Of a stretch of 64,000 nucleotides of DNA, positions 8,890-57,099 are shown piece by piece (positions within the stretch are counted from its first letter, which is position 1; the number at the start of each line of letters is the position of its first letter). Under the pieces are notes generated by a model. It was given only the letters and a program-made list of their open reading frames with translations. It searched no databases and was not told the DNA's origin. The DNA comes from an uncultured Opitutia bacterium (GTDB taxonomy: Bacteria > Verrucomicrobiota > Verrucomicrobiia > Opitutales > UBA953): NCBI GenBank assembly GCA_945957395.1, contig CAMFKE010000005.1, forward strand, positions 1 through 64,000, read 5' to 3'. Made by a program: the position numbers and the translations under genes.

Positions 8890-10344
8890 ATGCCCACACG
8901 CGATTTCGCCCGCCGAGCCGGACACCTGCTGCGCGCCCTCTTCGGGGTCCCCTTTTTCGCCCTCGGACTGTTCTTTCTCTTCTCGATCATTCGTCATGCT
9001 CTGACCGGCGACGCGGCCGAAGGCGCCCCCAAGACCTGGCTGATCATCCCCGCGCTCTTCGCGCTCGTCTTCGCCGGCGTGGGCGCCGCCATCGTGGTAA
9101 GCAGCCTGCGCAAGGCGCTCGGAGCGCCGCCGCCGGCGCCTCCAGCCGAGACGCCCCGCGCGCTCGACGAGAAAACGCGCGAGGCCTTCCCCGAAGCGCT
9201 GCCCAAGCCGAAAGGTCCCGGCAAGGCCGCCGTCCTCCTCCCGCTCCTCCTCGGCGGCATCTTCGCGGCTGCCGGCATCGGCATGCTGGCCGTAGCCGGG
9301 TACAAAGTTAACCGGGTGCGCGAGGCCGCCGCTTGGGTCGAGACGCCCTGCACGGTGCTCAATTCCGATGTCACCTCGCACAGCGGCTCCAAGGGCGGCA
9401 CCACCTACTCGGTCGCCGTGCGCTTCACCTACCGGTACGCCGACCGCGACTACGACGCCGCCACCTACTCGTTCGACACCGGCTCCAGCTCCGGCTACGA
9501 GGACAAGGCCGACATCGTGCGCAAACTCCCCCCGGGCGCCCGCGCGATCTGCTTCGTGAATCCGGCCGACCCGACCGAGGCGGTCATGGATCGATCCATG
9601 CCGTCCATCGTCTGGATTCTAGGCGGCATGGGCCCGTTCTTCGCCTTCGCCGGATTCGCCGTCATGGGCGCGCCGCTTTACGCCCGGCGAAAAAAGGCCC
9701 GCGAGCTCGCCTCCGGCAAGGGCGTGGAACTCGCGCCGGAGACCACGCGCTGGGCCACCGCCGCCGGCACGCTGTTCGCCGCGCTCTTCTGGAACGGCAT
9801 CACCGCGGTGTTCGTCACCTTCGCGGTGAAGTCGGTGAACGCCGGCCGCCCCGAATGGTTCCTCATCGTGTTCATCACCCCGTTCGTGCTCATCGGCGCG
9901 TTCCTCCTGTACGCCGCCGTCGGCGCCCTGTTCGCGCCCTTCAAGCCCCGCGTCAAACTCGTGCCCCAAAACACGCCGCGCGCCGGCGAGACGCTCAGGC
10001 TGAAGTGGGACGCCAACGGCCGCGAACCCTCCCTGCGCCGGCTGCGCATCAGCCTCGAAGGCTTCGAATACGCCGTCACCGGCTCCGGCAAACAACGCAC
10101 CAACCGCGAAATCATTTTCCACAGATCCGACCTGCTCGACAGCGAAGGACGCCCGGCGCGCGCGGGCACGCTCGAGGCGCCCATCCCGCGCACCCTGCCC
10201 CACTCGCTCGAACTCACCGGCACCGCCGGCGTGCGCTGGCGCATACGCGTGCAAACCGAGTCGGGACTGCCGCCCAAGCTGAACGAAACCTACCGCCTGC
10301 ATGTCGCACCCGCGCGATCCGAGGCCAACCCCTTCGCCGAATAG
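8890..10344 (+). CDS. Multi-pass membrane protein with a DUF3592-like domain and a C-terminal arrestin-like beta domain
   Basis: Several hydrophobic helices. DUF3592-like segment GYKVNRVREAAAWVETPCTVLNS...TTYSVAVRFTYRYADRDYDAATYSF...ICFVNPADPTEA. C-terminal soluble domain RLRISLEGFEYAVTGSGKQ...WRIRVQTE. Start taken at the first ATG after the upstream terminator. Confidence 0.55.
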   Translation: MPTRDFARRAGHLLRALFGVPFFALGLFFLFSIIRHALTGDAAEGAPKTWLIIPALFALVFAGVGAAIVVSSLRKALGAPPPAPPAETPRALDEKTREAFPEALPKPKGPGKAAVLLPLLLGGIFAAAGIGMLAVAGYKVNRVREAAAWVETPCTVLNSDVTSHSGSKGGTTYSVAVRFTYRYADRDYDAATYSFDTGSSSGYEDKADIVRKLPPGARAICFVNPADPTEAVMDRSMPSIVWILGGMGPFFAFAGFAVMGAPLYARRKKARELASGKGVELAPETTRWATAAGTLFAALFWNGITAVFVTFAVKSVNAGRPEWFLIVFITPFVLIGAFLLYAAVGALFAPFKPRVKLVPQNTPRAGETLRLKWDANGREPSLRRLRISLEGFEYAVTGSGKQRTNREIIFHRSDLLDSEGRPARAGTLEAPIPRTLPHSLELTGTAGVRWRIRVQTESGLPPKLNETYRLHVAPARSEANPFAE

Positions 10345-10351
10345 ACCCGCC

Positions 10352-10792
10352 ATGAGCGAACGACTCATCTCCATCACCCTCGACGCCCCCGCCTGTTCCG
10401 CGGGCGACACGATCACCGGCACCGCGCACACCGCCGGCCTCCCCCCGGGCTCCCCCGCCGTCGTGCGACTCGGCTGGTGGGCCGACGGCCTCGACGACGA
10501 GCGCCCCGCCGGCGACCTGGCGCAAGCCCGTTTCGTCACCGACGCCTCCGGCGAAACACGCTTCAGCCTGAGCATCCCCGAAGATGCGCCGCCCACGATG
10601 GACGGCTCCCTCTTCAGCGTGCGCCACGCCGTGGAGTTGAGCGCCGCCGGCGCCACGAGCCTGCTGCCGGTCGTCGTCTCCCCCACCCGCGCCCCGCTCG
10701 ACCTCGTCTCCGCATCGGTCGCCATCGCCGGCCCGGCTCCCAAGCTAGTGCGATTCCTGTCGAAGTTCGCCCCGAAGACAAAGCTCGGGTAA
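10352..10792 (+). CDS. Hypothetical small beta-rich protein (arrestin-like/Spo0M-like?), paralogous in pattern to the C-terminus of the upstream gene
   Basis: MSERLISITLDAPACSAGDTITGTAH...SLFSVRHAVELSA. Starts 8 nt after the previous stop. High GC3 coding frame. Confidence 0.5.
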   Translation: MSERLISITLDAPACSAGDTITGTAHTAGLPPGSPAVVRLGWWADGLDDERPAGDLAQARFVTDASGETRFSLSIPEDAPPTMDGSLFSVRHAVELSAAGATSLLPVVVSPTRAPLDLVSASVAIAGPAPKLVRFLSKFAPKTKLG

Positions 10793-40238: not shown

Positions 40239-41383
<1,145 letters not shown>

Positions 41384-52366: not shown

Positions 52367-52406
52367 CAACACAAGGATTCAACAGGGTGACACCTGCTGA
52401 ACACGA

Positions 52407-52439
52407 CGCCCCCCGCACTCAAGCGGGGGGCGTTTTTTT
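52407..52439 (+). terminator. Rho-independent terminator after hpf
   Basis: cgccccccgc-actcaa-gcggggggcg followed by T7. Confidence 0.65.
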
Positions 52440-52653: not shown

Positions 52654-54339
52654 ATGTCCCAAGCCGCGCAGCCCAATCTAGTCCCCGTTTTCGTCGACGG
52701 CGTGGAGCATCAGCTCCCCGAACGCATGAACCTTGTCGACGCCCTGAAGACCATCGGGAAGGAAGTGCCCCACTACTGCTACCACCCGAAGCTGCCCGTC
52801 TCTGGCAACTGCCGCATGTGCCTGGTCGAGCTTGGCTCGCCCATGATCGACCGCGCCACGAACCAGCCCGTGCTGGAGGCCGACGGCCGTGCGAAAATCG
52901 GCTGGCAGCCCAAGCCCGCCATCGCCTGCGCCTCGACGGTATCGCGCAACCTTCATGTGAAGCTTGAATCGAAGGCCGTGAAGGAGTGCCGCGAAGGCGT
53001 GACGGAAATGCTCCTGGTCAACCACCCGCTGGACTGCCCCGTTTGCGACCAGGCCGGCGAATGCAAGCTGCAGGAATACTCGGCCGACTACGGCAAGGGC
53101 TACTCGCGCTACATCGAGTCGAAGAACGTCAAGCCGAAGAAAACCAAGCTTGGTCCGCGTGTCACGCTCGACGACGAGCGCTGCATCCTCTGCTCACGCT
53201 GCATCCGCTTCCAGTCCGAGATCATGAAGGACCCCGTGCTGGGCTTCATCAACCGCGGCTCCTACAACACCCTCACCTGCTACCCGGGACGCGAGTTGGA
53301 CAACAACTACTCGCTCAACACCGTCGATCTTTGCCCGGTCGGCGCGCTTACGGACACCGATTTCCGCTTCAAGATGCGCGTTTGGTTCCTCAAGCAGACC
53401 AACTCCATCTGCACCGAGTCCAGCGCCGGCACCAACACCGTCGTGTGGAGCCGAGAAGGCGTGATTCATCGCATCACGCCGCGCCGAAACGACGCCGTGA
53501 ACGACACCTGGATGGCCGACTCCGGTCGCGCCCTGTACAAGCAGGTCGCCGCCGGCGACCGTATCCTTTCGGCCCGTAACGGCGGAAGCCCCGCCACGGT
53601 CGATGCGGCCACCGCCTCCGCCGCGGAGCTCATCCGAGCCGGCGCCGTCGCTTACGTCTCCTCCGGCCACCTGTCGGTCGAGGAGCAGCACCTGCTCGCC
53701 AAGCTCGTGTCCGCCGCGCCGGGCGTGGTACACCAGCCGGCGCGCCTCGGCAAGTCCGACGGCATGCTCATCTCCGAGGACCGCACGCCGAACACGCGCG
53801 GCGCCCTCGCCACCGGCCTGATTTGCGCGGCCCCGTCCGCCTCGCTTGACGCGCTCGCCGCCGACATCGAAGCGGGCAAGGTGCGCACGCTCGTCGTCGC
53901 GGGCGAGGACCTCACGACCGCCGGCCTCAGCGCCGCGCAGCTCGGCAAGGTCGCGATCATCTACATCGGAACGCACGAAAACGCCACCGCCGCCGCGGCG
54001 CGCATCGTCATCCCCGGACTCACCGTTTTCGAGAAATCCGGAAGCTTCATCAATGTGCAGTGGCGCCTGCAAAAGTTCGCCGCCGCCATCCCCGGCCCCG
54101 CCGGCATCCCGGCCCAGGCCGCCACCCTCGCCCGCCTGGCCGCCGAAGCGACCTCCGCCGCGCCGGCCGCAAACGACGCCGAGTCGGTCTGGAAGTCGCT
54201 CGCCGCCGAACGCCCGCTGTTCGCCGCCGTGACCGGCTTCGCCGCCATCCCCGACTCCGGCCTCGCGCTTGACGCGGGCGCCCTCGCCGGCGTGGCGCTG
54301 CCCGAAACCAAGCTGCTCAAGTTCGCTCCCGCCGCCTGA
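52654..54339 (+). CDS. nuoG: NADH-quinone oxidoreductase subunit G (75-kDa Fe-S subunit, short form)
   Basis: 2Fe-2S and 4Fe-4S Cys motifs (HYCYHPKLPVSGNCRMCLVEL; HPLDCPVCDQAGECKLQ; CILCSRCIRF; LCPVGALTDTDFRFKMRVWF), closely resembling Thermus Nqo3. Confidence 0.9.
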   Translation: MSQAAQPNLVPVFVDGVEHQLPERMNLVDALKTIGKEVPHYCYHPKLPVSGNCRMCLVELGSPMIDRATNQPVLEADGRAKIGWQPKPAIACASTVSRNLHVKLESKAVKECREGVTEMLLVNHPLDCPVCDQAGECKLQEYSADYGKGYSRYIESKNVKPKKTKLGPRVTLDDERCILCSRCIRFQSEIMKDPVLGFINRGSYNTLTCYPGRELDNNYSLNTVDLCPVGALTDTDFRFKMRVWFLKQTNSICTESSAGTNTVVWSREGVIHRITPRRNDAVNDTWMADSGRALYKQVAAGDRILSARNGGSPATVDAATASAAELIRAGAVAYVSSGHLSVEEQHLLAKLVSAAPGVVHQPARLGKSDGMLISEDRTPNTRGALATGLICAAPSASLDALAADIEAGKVRTLVVAGEDLTTAGLSAAQLGKVAIIYIGTHENATAAAARIVIPGLTVFEKSGSFINVQWRLQKFAAAIPGPAGIPAQAATLARLAAEATSAAPAANDAESVWKSLAAERPLFAAVTGFAAIPDSGLALDAGALAGVALPETKLLKFAPAA

Positions 54340-54392
54340 ATCGAAGGCCGCCGCGCCCTACGCAAGCCGAACCCCGCACCGACCTTTCCGCC

Positions 54393-54785
54393 ATGTTTCT
54401 AGCCGCAGAAAACCTTCAGGAAACCTACCTCCCGGTCCTCCTCCAGGTGATCATCGCCATCGCGCTGCCCATCACCATCCTCATCGCCTCCCAGGCCTTC
54501 GGACAGCGTGCCAAGCGCAACAAGATCAAGGACTCCGCATACGAGTGCGGCCTTCCCGCCGAGGACAAGCCGCACCCGCGCTTCGCGGTGAAGTTCTATG
54601 TCACCGCCATGCTTTTCATCCTCTTCGATATCGAAGTGGTGTTTCTCGTGCCGTGGGCGACCATCTACCGCGACTTCATTGCCGAAGGCATTTCCATCGT
54701 GGCCCCCATTCTCGTGTTCCTGGGCGTCATCATCCTGGGTCTTGCATACGAGATTCGTAACGGCGCCCTCGAGTGGGACAAGTGA
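54393..54785 (+). CDS. nuoA: NADH-quinone oxidoreductase subunit A
   Basis: Three TM helices and conserved YECG...FYVTAMLFILFDIEVVFLVPWA motif. Confidence 0.9.
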   Translation: MFLAAENLQETYLPVLLQVIIAIALPITILIASQAFGQRAKRNKIKDSAYECGLPAEDKPHPRFAVKFYVTAMLFILFDIEVVFLVPWATIYRDFIAEGISIVAPILVFLGVIILGLAYEIRNGALEWDK

Positions 54786-54817
54786 ACCGGCTGCCATAGC
54801 CGCAAACATCCGGAAAA

Positions 54818-54849
54818 AGGGGAACGACCGTTCAGGCCGCTCCCCTTTT
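54818..54849 (+). terminator. Hairpin plus T-run after nuoA
   Basis: ggggaacgaccgttcaggccgctcccc followed by ttttt. Confidence 0.5.
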
Positions 54850-54901
54850 TCGCAATGGAACAAAGCCGTCCTCTCCGCCATCCTCCCGCCTCTACCAGGT
54901 C

Positions 54902-56266
54902 ATGCGTCCCGACAAATTCATCAACCAATCCCGCGTCGTCGACCTGAAGAGTCGCGACTTCCGCTCCGCCCTGCTCGAACTGCTGGACGCCTGCCCGGCC
55001 GCCGCCCTTTCCGGCCAGGACCCCGCGCTGCTCGTCGAGACTATCCTGCGTCGCGAAGGCACCCTGCCGACCCACTTGGACAACTCGGTGGCGCTTCCTC
55101 ACCTGCGTCTGCCCCTCTCGCGCAAGTATGTCATCGCCGTGGGGCGCTGCCCCGCGGGGCTGACGGAATCGCCCGACCCCGAGGACAGGGCGGTGCGCAT
55201 CGTCTTCCTCGTCCTGGCATCGGACAAGGAGAAGAGCTACCACACCGTCCTCTCCGCCATAGCGGGCGCCCTCGAGGACAAGGATATCGTCGCCAGGCTC
55301 GAAAAGGCTCCGGACCTGAAGGCGTTCCGAGCCGAGATCGCCGCGCTCTTCAAAGGCGTCTCCGGCCTGACGGCATCGGCCAATGTTCGCTTCAACCGAC
55401 TCTTCATCCGGGAAGCCGAGAAGATCGCCGTGGGGGCCGACTGCTCCTCCATCATGCTCTTCATGGACGCCTTCAACACACCGGTGAAGGTGGGGAAGTT
55501 CGCGGCCAAATCGCTCAACACCATCATCGTCTCCCGCCGCGAATACCAGATTCCGGCCGATGCCGGCGACGAGCCCGACATGCTCGTCGTGCGCTCCTTC
55601 TCCAACCATCGCATGTCGCAGCTGCGCTCCGCGCTCCTCGTCGGCCTCATGCGCGGACTCGTCAGGCCCGACGAGCGCATCTGCTGCCTCGGCGGCCTTC
55701 CCGGTTCCGACAAACTCGACTCCATCCTGGTCGTCGACATCGCCAAGGAATTCCCGGCCGTGCTCGCCCGACAGAGCGAAAAGCTGCTGCCCGACGGCGT
55801 GAGCCCCGAAGTCCTCGAGCGCGCCCTGGGCATCGCCACCGAACTGGCCGTCGAAGGCCGCGAGGGCAAGCCGGTCGGCTGCATTCTGGTCGTGGGATGC
55901 CGCGACAAGCTCAAGCCGCACACCAAGCCCCTCATCCTCAACCCCTTCTTCGGCTACCCCGAGGAGGACCGCAACATCCTGTCGCCCTTCATGGACGAAA
56001 CCGTCAAGGAGTTGTCCGGAATCGACGGCGCCTTCGTCATCAACGGCGACGGCGTCATCGAGTCCGCGGGCACCCTGCTCACGGCGCCCAACCCACAGCG
56101 CGCCCTCCCGGGCGGCCTGGGCACGCGACACTCCGCGGCCTGCGCCATCTCCGTGGCCGCCGACTGCGCGGCGCTGGTAGTCTCCACTTCGACCGGACAA
56201 GTCACCCTCTTCCGCCACGGCGAACCCATCGTGCTCGTCGACCGTTCCGCCAACCGCCCCCTGTGA
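54902..56266 (+). CDS. PTS EIIA type-2 (PtsN/EIIA-Ntr-like) domain fused to a diadenylate cyclase (DAC/DisA_N) domain
   Basis: N-terminal 150 aa match PTS_EIIA_2 (LLELLD...ILRREGTLPTHLDNSVALPHLRLP... with His in the A[IL]PH phosphorylation motif; RIVFLVLASDK...HTVLSAIA). C-terminal region aligns motif-by-motif with CdaA DAC (DGAFVINGDGVIESAGTLL ~ DGAVIMKNNEIAAA; LGTRHSAACAISVAADCAALVVSTSTGQVTLFRHGE ~ [31 protein letters not shown]). DGA present; RHR replaced by RHS. Confidence 0.75.
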   Translation: MRPDKFINQSRVVDLKSRDFRSALLELLDACPAAALSGQDPALLVETILRREGTLPTHLDNSVALPHLRLPLSRKYVIAVGRCPAGLTESPDPEDRAVRIVFLVLASDKEKSYHTVLSAIAGALEDKDIVARLEKAPDLKAFRAEIAALFKGVSGLTASANVRFNRLFIREAEKIAVGADCSSIMLFMDAFNTPVKVGKFAAKSLNTIIVSRREYQIPADAGDEPDMLVVRSFSNHRMSQLRSALLVGLMRGLVRPDERICCLGGLPGSDKLDSILVVDIAKEFPAVLARQSEKLLPDGVSPEVLERALGIATELAVEGREGKPVGCILVVGCRDKLKPHTKPLILNPFFGYPEEDRNILSPFMDETVKELSGIDGAFVINGDGVIESAGTLLTAPNPQRALPGGLGTRHSAACAISVAADCAALVVSTSTGQVTLFRHGEPIVLVDRSANRPL

Positions 56267-56364
56267 TAAAAGCGGAATGAACGCGCCCTGCGGGCGGGGG
56301 CCTATCGGGCATAAACTCTTGCCTGAGGCTAGGTTTTGTGCATTCACGACGCAAAGCGCGCTCG

Positions 56365-57099
56365 ATGAAAACCATTACCCACCTCCTCGCGACCCTTGGT
56401 TTCGCGATGGCGGCCCATGCGGGCACGCCGGCCGAAAACATGGCCGCCAAGGTCCGCTCCGCCCTGGGAGGCGATGCGGCGCTGAATGCCGTAAAATCCG
56501 TTCGCTTTGAGATCACGGCGAAGGACGGTGACGACAAGCCCCTTGGCGTCCTCATCACCGAATACAAGGCGCCCATGAAGCTGCGCGAGATAGACTACAC
56601 GCGTCAGCCCCTTGAACTCGTCTACGCCATCGACGGACGCGAGGGCCACCGCGTCATCCGCCGCCTCGACAACGGAAATCGCCGCGTCGAAATCATGACC
56701 GCCGCCGAAGTGGACGCCCGACGGGACTTCGCCAACGCCAACCTGCACTTCATGGCGGCCCCTTCGCCCGAGCGCGGAAGCCTCTCTCTCGACACCAAAC
56801 CCGTCTCAATCGACGGCATCGAGTGCGCCGTCCTGGCCTTCCAATACAAATCCGGGTTCACGCTGCGCCGGTTCATCGACCCTGCAACAAGCCGCCTCGT
56901 AGCCTCGCGCATCGATTTCTCCGGCAAGCCCGGCGAACTCATGGTGAACCGCGGCGAACAGAAGGTTGCCGGCATCACCTACCCCAAGGAAATTGAAATC
57001 CGGGACGCCTCCGGAAAAACGCAGCGCAAGCTCAGCATCGCCAAAATCGAAGTGAACCCCGAGCTCGCCGACGCCGCCTTCACCACCCCGCTTTTCTGA
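56365..57099 (+). CDS. Secreted hypothetical protein (possibly LolA-like fold)
   Basis: Signal peptide MKTITHLLATLGFAMAAHA. ~245-aa beta-rich sequence with no recognised catalytic motif. Confidence 0.5.
   Translation: MKTITHLLATLGFAMAAHAGTPAENMAAKVRSALGGDAALNAVKSVRFEITAKDGDDKPLGVLITEYKAPMKLREIDYTRQPLELVYAIDGREGHRVIRRLDNGNRRVEIMTAAEVDARRDFANANLHFMAAPSPERGSLSLDTKPVSIDGIECAVLAFQYKSGFTLRRFIDPATSRLVASRIDFSGKPGELMVNRGEQKVAGITYPKEIEIRDASGKTQRKLSIAKIEVNPELADAAFTTPLF

Follow-up and report, generated by a model that had tools for sequence, protein, structure and literature searches.

The gene analysed here lies in a 64,000-nucleotide stretch (the window) from an uncultured Opitutia bacterium, on the forward strand of contig CAMFKE010000005.1, and encodes a 454-aa protein in which a phosphotransferase system (PTS) EIIA domain is joined to a diadenylate cyclase (DAC) domain. 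Its open reading frame (ORF) is uninterrupted throughout, and GC contents of 0.67, 0.44 and 0.88 at the first, second and third codon positions give it the strong third-position bias of the other genes of this window of 65% GC. The identical 454-aa protein is present on 23 public contigs.

A three-domain protein with EIIA, DacZ_P and DAC domains

We searched the 454-aa protein against Pfam and obtained three domains, all of which exceeded their curated thresholds: PTS_EIIA_2 (PF00359) at residues 41-146 (E 1.4e-15, 57.9 bits with a cut-off of 27), DacZ_P at residues 164-282 (E 8.1e-10), and DAC (PF02457) at residues 316-441 (E 8.5e-19, 67.7 bits with a cut-off of 27). The fusion of a PtsN-like EIIA with a DAC domain, which a first-pass annotation had proposed from the nucleotide sequence, is thus real. 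The region between the two, described in that annotation as of unknown function, is DacZ_P, the characteristic sensor domain of DacZ/CdaZ-class cyclases. The top match among NCBIfam models was the haloarchaeal DacZ model (residues 179-447), and its 91.7 bits against an equivalog cut-off of 430 mark the protein as a distant bacterial relative and not an ortholog of haloarchaeal DacZ. PtsN and fructose EIIA models matched the N-terminus weakly, with scores below the PtsN equivalog cut-offs (TIGR01419, 33.3 bits versus 138.7; NF008145, 21.2 bits versus 221).

AlphaFold2, given 64 diverse homologues, produced a confident model, with a mean predicted local distance difference test score (pLDDT) of 91.3 and a predicted template modelling score (pTM) of 0.76. 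The sole internal dip in confidence was the helical linker between EIIA and DacZ_P (pLDDT 66 at residues 151-160). The model contains both an EIIA fold and a DAC fold, and DacZ_P adopts a fold like that of the C-terminal domain of pyruvate kinase (PK_C-like). Foldseek agreed with these domain folds, and no solved structure covered more than a single domain of the protein. The PK_C-like DacZ_P precedes DAC immediately, which is the arrangement of DacZ/CdaZ, and the EIIA domain at residues ~1-150 comes in addition to the two domains of that class. The coordinates of these features are listed in Table 1.

Table 1. Features of the cyclase gene and its upstream region (positions in the window)
Feature	Position	Strand	Details
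EIIA-DacZ_P-DAC protein gene ('DacD'-class diadenylate cyclase)	54902..56266	+	ORF, 454 aa, three Pfam domains
PTS EIIA type-2 (PtsN-like) domain, residues ~1-150	54902..55351	+	
His67 codon, predicted phospho-acceptor	55100..55102	+	alignment to His73 (E. coli IIA-Ntr) and His65 (IIA-Mtl)
Helical linker between EIIA and DacZ_P, residues ~139-178	55316..55435	+	AlphaFold helices 139-155 and 157-178; confidence dip at ~150-160
DacZ_P, pyruvate-kinase C-terminal-like putative sensor, residues 164-282	55391..55747	+	
DAC (diadenylate cyclase) catalytic domain, residues 316-441	55847..56224	+	
DGA motif, D375-G376-A377	56024..56032	+	D and G invariant, A in 116/120 close homologues; DGA in 87/90 distant representatives
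R409-H410-S411 ('RHR' position)	56126..56134	+	R and H invariant in 120 close homologues
nuoA-like gene (NADH-quinone oxidoreductase subunit A/ND3 family)	54393..54785	+	PF00507, E 1.5e-29
Terminator-like hairpin (A-tract, GC stem, T-tract) in the nuoA-cyclase spacer	54813..54851	.	17-nt inverted repeat, 88% complementary, 5-nt loop, then TTTTT

The predicted phospho-acceptor histidine of the EIIA domain is conserved

His67 of the protein is in register with His73 of Escherichia coli IIA-Ntr and His65 of IIA-Mtl, and Arg51 with the conserved R57 and R49 of the same proteins. The spacing of 16 residues from R51/E52 to P66/H67 equals that of R57...H73 in E. coli PtsN. We followed these positions in two sets of sequences. 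The close set comprised 120 homologues with 48-100% identity to the 454-aa protein; for the distant set we took the 150 top-ranking cluster representatives of an exhaustive search, of which 90 had all three domains, extending down to ~28% identity, and 48 had DacZ_P and DAC only. His67 is kept in 114 of the 120 close homologues (95%) and in 83 of the 90 distant three-domain representatives (92%). The phosphorylatable histidine noted in the first-pass annotation is therefore present and widely conserved.

Asn, Gln, Ser or Arg stands at the position of the acceptor histidine in P0121, P0128, P0138, P0146, P0178, P0187 and P0202 as well as in 5 of the 120 close homologues, a minority of three-domain proteins in which DGA and Arg-His are intact. 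Long additional N-terminal regions occur in P0138 (714 aa), P0202 from Oligoflexus tunisiensis (680 aa) and P0285 from a member of the Planctomycetaceae (537 aa).

The variant RHR motif of the DAC domain is shared with the DacZ branch

The DAC domain carries the DGA and RHS motifs as they had been read initially. All 120 close homologues share D375, G376, R409, H410, S428 and S430, and these residues are close to invariant in 138 distant representatives. At position 411, 106 of the close homologues have Ala, 9 have Ser and none has Arg. The distant three-domain proteins vary at this position (A, T, Q, R and others), and nearly all have Ser at 430; the 48 relatives with DacZ_P and DAC only show the same pattern at both positions. 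The third residue of a canonical RHR motif is hence absent from the protein and from 120/120 close homologues, and S411 and S430 stand where CdaA has Arg and Glu.

We looked for archaeal DacZ/CdaZ sequences among the cluster representatives and found bacterial-type relatives only. A further homology search, started from P0235 as the most DacZ-like protein, brought up proteins from Nitrospinota, Tectomicrobia and Syntrophaceae. In place of archaeal DacZ sequences, point variants of the 454-aa protein were scored against NCBI models (Table 2). The haloarchaeal DacZ model is indifferent to Arg at position 411 and prefers Ser430, so RH-x and Ser430 are features of the DacZ branch. By these scores, the full RHR motif is a mark of the classical classes (CdaA, CdaS, DisA and CdaM) and not of the DacZ branch, and 'RHS' is a class trait and no sign of lost activity. 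The idea that RHS could make the domain a receptor, raised in the first-pass annotation, finds no footing in a family with Ala or Ser at this position and a DacZ model that does not ask for Arg. DacZ of Haloferax volcanii is an active, Mn-dependent and essential cyclase (Braun et al. 2019, PMC6741144). The published evidence on RHR comes from a triple RHR-to-AAA mutant only (PMC3328451), which carries no information on the third Arg by itself.

Table 2. Scores of point variants of the 454-aa protein against NCBI models of DAC classes
Variant	Haloarchaeal DacZ model (bits)	CdaA, CdaS, DisA and CdaM models
Wild type (S411)	93.5	baseline
S411R	93.3	+~4 bits each
S411A	93.4	unchanged
S411H	94.2	+0.6-0.8 bits
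S430E	90.8 (Ser preferred, cost 2.7 bits)	CdaA and CdaS +2-3 bits; DisA and CdaM -1-2 bits
T429E	96.6 (Glu preferred)	+0.9-3.9 bits

The protein belongs to a large class that is already catalogued

A first homology search yielded 2191 homologues of the cyclase, and the top 120 matches were nearly all three-domain proteins of 450-465 aa from Puniceicoccales, Opitutales, Coraliomargarita and Lentimonas. Public databases contain thousands of copies of the three-domain protein, already carrying automated names such as 'diadenylate cyclase', 'PTS sugar transporter subunit IIA' or 'DisA.../mannitol/fructose-specific phosphotransferase system IIA domain'. Scanning one genome per species, we found a relative in at least 568 species genomes, and the best 80 of these were essentially all from the class Opitutia. 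The nearest named relatives suggest that the window comes from a member of the Puniceicoccales. The EIIA-DAC fusion also occurs in Planctomycetota (P0285), and the DacZ_P and DAC core is widespread in bacteria without EIIA. As this core is widespread alone and equals the architecture of archaeal DacZ/CdaZ, the gain of an N-terminal EIIA by a DacZ-type cyclase fits better than the acquisition of a DAC domain by a ptsN gene, which had been suggested at first. A crude neighbour-joining tree of the shared DacZ_P and DAC region, in which truncated gene models and a query-biased sample have to be reckoned with, needed at least 10 gains or losses of EIIA.

Opitutia-type cyclase contigs (46-49% identity, full length) were also met in metagenome-assembled genomes labelled Polaribacter sp. 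and 'uncultured Enterobacteriaceae' (L013, L045 and L058); these labels are probably binning or labelling errors.

The EIIA-DAC architecture is not new. Braun et al. 2019 (PMC6741144) list five representatives of a bacterial class 'DacD' that goes back to Corrigan & Gründling 2013; they come from Lacunisphaera, Puniceicoccaceae, Coraliomargarita, a 'Verrucomicrobia bacterium' and Opitutae. In our species scan, the DAC proteins of taxa on that list belong to the three-domain family (Lacunisphaera, L029/L032; Coraliomargarita, L006; Puniceicoccaceae, L011/L017). Since the listed taxa are those of the three-domain family, this family is the 'DacD' class, and the initial claim that the known DAC classes include no EIIA fusion has to be withdrawn. 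From the match of taxa, we presume that the EIIA domain is the defining feature of DacD. DAC proteins have reportedly been reclassified into 22 families by Galperin in 2023.

According to the phylum-level data of a 2026 gut survey, Verrucomicrobiota are the main phylum with 'DacZ'-type cyclases, and the 19 Verrucomicrobiota species scored 'DacZ' sit in the DacZ-only column of a phylum table that has no column joining DacZ with another DAC class (PMC12901056). This DacZ-only column is consistent with DacZ as the sole cyclase in those Verrucomicrobiota. The gene in the window is hence an ordinary member of a large and common class, catalogued but uncharacterised experimentally.

A nuoA-like gene precedes the cyclase gene in Opitutia

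We annotated the genes of the window by a choice of ORFs guided by third-position GC content, combined with Pfam. The surroundings of the cyclase gene within 10 kb on either side are of housekeeping character, with rpiB, purD, a short-chain dehydrogenase/reductase gene, hpf, a NuoG-like gene, nuoA, the cyclase gene, a gene for a secreted hypothetical protein, hisD, rpmA/rplU, fmt and rpe. The remainder of the window is ordinary: no PTS protein, c-di-AMP phosphodiesterase or K+ transporter was found there, and an Rfam scan of the window gave no ydaO-type c-di-AMP riboswitch and no other RNA.

We sampled 80 related loci, 75 of which had enough upstream sequence to show nuoA. Unbiased clustering of the flanking ORFs showed that 69 of these 75 Opitutia loci have nuoA immediately upstream of, and in the same orientation as, the cyclase gene, with a gap of 56 bp at the median (range 2-175 bp; 116 bp in the window). 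It is the only neighbour conserved among the 80 loci, and nuoB-N are not adjacent. The pairing is absent from members outside Opitutia, including those of Planctomycetota, though the fusion occurs there. It is also the one feature for which we found no description. In the window, the spacer between the two genes holds the terminator-like hairpin of Table 1, which could stop transcription both ways and was missed by a consensus scan. Nothing terminator-like was present 3' of the cyclase stop codon, so the description of the gene as terminator-bounded, given in the first-pass annotation, holds for its upstream side and fails downstream.

The gene hpf (Ribosomal_S30AE) lies ~2.5 kb upstream of the cyclase gene in the window, as had been noted, and was seen there as an echo of the proteobacterial neighbourhood rpoN-hpf-ptsN (in full, rpoN-hpf-ptsN-(rapZ/hprK)-ptsO). 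No rpoN, HPr or enzyme I (EI) gene was found in the window, no ptsO was found either, and hpf lies near the cyclase gene in 0/80 related loci, from which we conclude that the resemblance is coincidental.

Other genes and features of the region were observed in passing. A strong canonical terminator follows hpf at 52405-52434 (12-bp stem with 10 GC pairs, T-run). The NuoG/Nqo3-like gene, whose 561-aa product has Fe-S domains and a weak molybdopterin-domain match, spans 52654-54785 together with nuoA, an adjacency that none of the 80 related loci shares. Since neither nuoB-F nor nuoH-N lies near this pair, the complex I genes appear to be scattered in the genome. Just 3' of the cyclase gene and with no terminator between the two genes, 56338-57099 encodes a protein of ~244-253 aa whose N-terminus resembles a signal peptide and which matches no Pfam family; it is not conserved beside the cyclase in other genomes. 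A GlnB/GlnK-type P-II gene (PF00543, E 1.7e-34) lies at 41045-41383, 3' of trpF; it is of the nitrogen type and not of the PstA/DarA type of c-di-AMP receptor, and neither glnA nor amtB was identified among its annotated neighbours. A block at 12436-19822 of L091 (equal to 4866-12252 of L092), some 1 kb downstream of the cyclase homologue with 69% identity, combines genes for an integrase, a secretin and a Zot-like ATPase with small ORFs and a gene for a REP_ORF2-G2P replication protein; it resembles a filamentous (inovirus-like) prophage integrated into a Verrucomicrobiota genome.

An HPr kinase in the lineage

HprK, the HPr kinase/phosphorylase, is common among Puniceicoccales, Opitutales and Verrucomicrobiota. 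At L003, the closest genome relative, a bona fide HprK gene (9583-10722) lies 1.7 kb downstream of the cyclase gene, and HprK and a 69%-identical cyclase homologue share one 64-kb contig. In L088 (7563-8606) and L090 (10001-10975), HprK directly follows an LptD_N-like gene and lptB, a site that in proteobacteria is the place of rpoN-hpf-ptsN-rapZ-ptsO; no HPr gene was called within 10 kb. As HprK is present in the lineage, an HPr-type carrier is very likely there too. A weak HprK match within the window itself lay inside argS and was rejected as chance.

Comparison with known cyclases and EIIA proteins

The Opitutia protein shares the two-domain core, DacZ_P followed by DAC, with DacZ of H. 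volcanii (HVO_1660) and CdaZ of Methanocaldococcus jannaschii, as well as the PK_C-like fold of their N-terminal domain (Braun et al. 2019, PMC6741144). The active-site variant is also shared with DacZ according to the probing of NCBI models, with DGA, RH-x and a Ser at the position of CdaA E224. Unlike the archaeal proteins, it has an added EIIA of ~150 aa and a helical linker at the N-terminus; its active site reads S-[AGST]-S where the DacZ model has S-E-S; and no mscS gene stands beside it, whereas haloarchaeal dacZ forms an operon with mscS2. With CdaA (DacA) it has in common the DAC fold (Foldseek E ~3e-8, TM 0.6-0.69), the DGA motif, the Arg-His pair and the probable role as the organism's main source of c-di-AMP. 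CdaA, with its three N-terminal transmembrane helices, is under the control of CdaR and GlmM, whereas the Opitutia protein is soluble and has EIIA and PK_C-like sensor domains instead, with RHS and S-T-S in place of RHR and S-E-E.

The Arg...His spacing of the active site is that of PtsN/EIIA-Ntr, which is likewise a regulatory EIIA without an EIIB/C partner. In contrast to proteobacterial PtsN, the EIIA is fused to an enzyme and not free-standing, and its gene is not beside rpoN or ptsO; PtsN binds separate target proteins, while the target of the Opitutia EIIA lies in the same chain. PtsN is reported to control TrkA (Lee et al. in 2007), and c-di-AMP governs the physiology of K+ uptake in other bacteria. 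Control of Kdp K+ uptake by PtsN is described in PMC9239096.

A PTS phosphorelay may tune c-di-AMP synthesis in Opitutia

We favour, by a modest leaning, the view that the protein is an active DacZ/CdaZ-type cyclase tuned by HPr/NPr phosphorylation of His67. It would then be the housekeeping or main c-di-AMP synthase of the class Opitutia, a soluble DacZ/CdaZ-type cyclase with an N-terminal PtsN-like EIIA. Two DAC domains would meet face to face and join two ATP into c-di-AMP, as established for DisA and CdaA. His67 would be reversibly phosphorylated by HPr/NPr~P from an EI-HPr relay that HprK modulates and that signals the state of phosphoenolpyruvate (PEP)/pyruvate and of carbon and nitrogen. 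Through the helical linker and DacZ_P, the phosphorylation state could make productive DAC-DAC encounters easier or harder and so change the rate of c-di-AMP synthesis, and DacZ_P may supply a second input if it binds a metabolite. Phosphorelay control of c-di-AMP synthesis is the most economical reading. The domains and their folds, the conserved catalytic and acceptor residues, the phyletic distribution and the HprK gene that shares a contig with the cyclase of a close relative are observed, while catalysis, phosphorylation of His67, the direction of its effect and a DacZ_P ligand are inferred.

Several observations count against this view. HPr, NPr and EI were found neither in the window (tblastn) nor in 1.44 Mb of related loci (tblastn, hmmsearch and phmmer), a search that turned up HprK alone, in L003, and from which divergent genes could have escaped; the phosphodonor for the histidine in these genomes is therefore assumed. 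PTS genes are not linked to the cyclase gene, save for hprK nearby in 1 of the 80 loci (L003). In 5-8% of members, Asn, Gln or Ser replaces His67 while DGA and RH are retained, so function does not strictly require phosphorylation. Where the wider clade and the DacZ model read S-E-S, Opitutia members show S-[AGST]-S, which includes the positions of CdaA E223/E224; with no acidic residue at either position, metal binding may differ. Finally, we found no experimental study of an EIIA-DAC protein or of the 'DacD' class in the literature.

Some of these observations would fit an active cyclase whose EIIA-fold domain serves as a module for ligand binding, protein binding or dimerisation, the His/Arg pocket holding a small molecule or a partner and no phosphorelay being involved. 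The missing HPr and EI genes, the lack of PTS linkage, the replacement of His67 in proteins that keep their catalytic motifs, and a score of 33 bits against the PtsN equivalog cut-off of 138.7 all speak for such a module. We nevertheless consider it unlikely, if the most serious of the alternatives, because the exact PtsN/EIIA-Mtl signature R-E-x13-P-H is found in >90% of members with identities down to ~28%, and because HprK, and by implication its HPr substrate, is present in the lineage. A different partner is suggested by the gene order: with nuoA directly upstream in 69 of 75 loci at a median gap of 56 bp and as little as 2 bp, with no other conserved neighbour and with nuoB-N not adjacent, the cyclase could be recruited to complex I or controlled with it through the NuoA-like three-helix membrane protein, so that c-di-AMP would track respiration or the membrane state and not the PTS. 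Adjacency by itself is no proof of interaction, however; the terminator-like hairpin separates the two genes in the window, the pairing is absent outside Opitutia despite the fusion there, and the NuoA resembles an ordinary complex I subunit, all of which makes this a distinctly improbable account.

The deviations of the active site raise the question of whether the DAC domain is catalytically dead and acts as a sensor of ATP or c-di-AMP, a receptor and not a synthase. Ser takes the place of Arg at 411 and of Glu at 430 relative to CdaA, Opitutia proteins also lack Glu at 429, and the CdaA, CdaS, DisA and CdaM models favour Arg at 411 by ~4 bits. These deviations are, however, common to the whole DacZ-like clade and the haloarchaeal DacZ model, including the active H. 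volcanii enzyme, while DGA, R409, H410 and S428 are invariant. DisA, too, is not known to have a Glu at the position aligned to CdaA E224. The phylum table of the gut survey, with no column for DacZ plus another DAC class, is consistent with the absence of a second cyclase in such Verrucomicrobiota. A dead domain thus seems very improbable to us, even more so than a partnership with NuoA. That the fusion arose as an artefact of assembly or gene calling, joining two genes, is excluded by the uninterrupted frame, the identical protein on 23 independent contigs, the thousands of full-length homologues of 450-465 aa and the confident single-chain model (pTM 0.76).

The favoured phosphorelay reading can be extended to a c-di-AMP node with three inputs in Opitutia, namely the PTS at His67, a metabolite at DacZ_P, and coupling to complex I via the adjacent nuoA, by co-expression or by docking on NuoA. 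We give little credence to this extension; if true, one protein would merge the PtsN system of proteobacteria and the c-di-AMP system of Firmicutes for K+ and osmotic homeostasis.

Overall, if the proposed mechanism holds, it would be the first case of a PTS phosphorelay directly setting the level of c-di-AMP, a second messenger that is both essential and toxic. Verrucomicrobia are abundant polysaccharide degraders of soil, water and gut, and their carbon/nitrogen energy status would be tied to the control of potassium and osmolytes. The function of the PK_C-like domain has been stated as unknown (PMC10249747), and the regulatory logic of the whole DacZ/CdaZ branch would become testable in a bacterial system.

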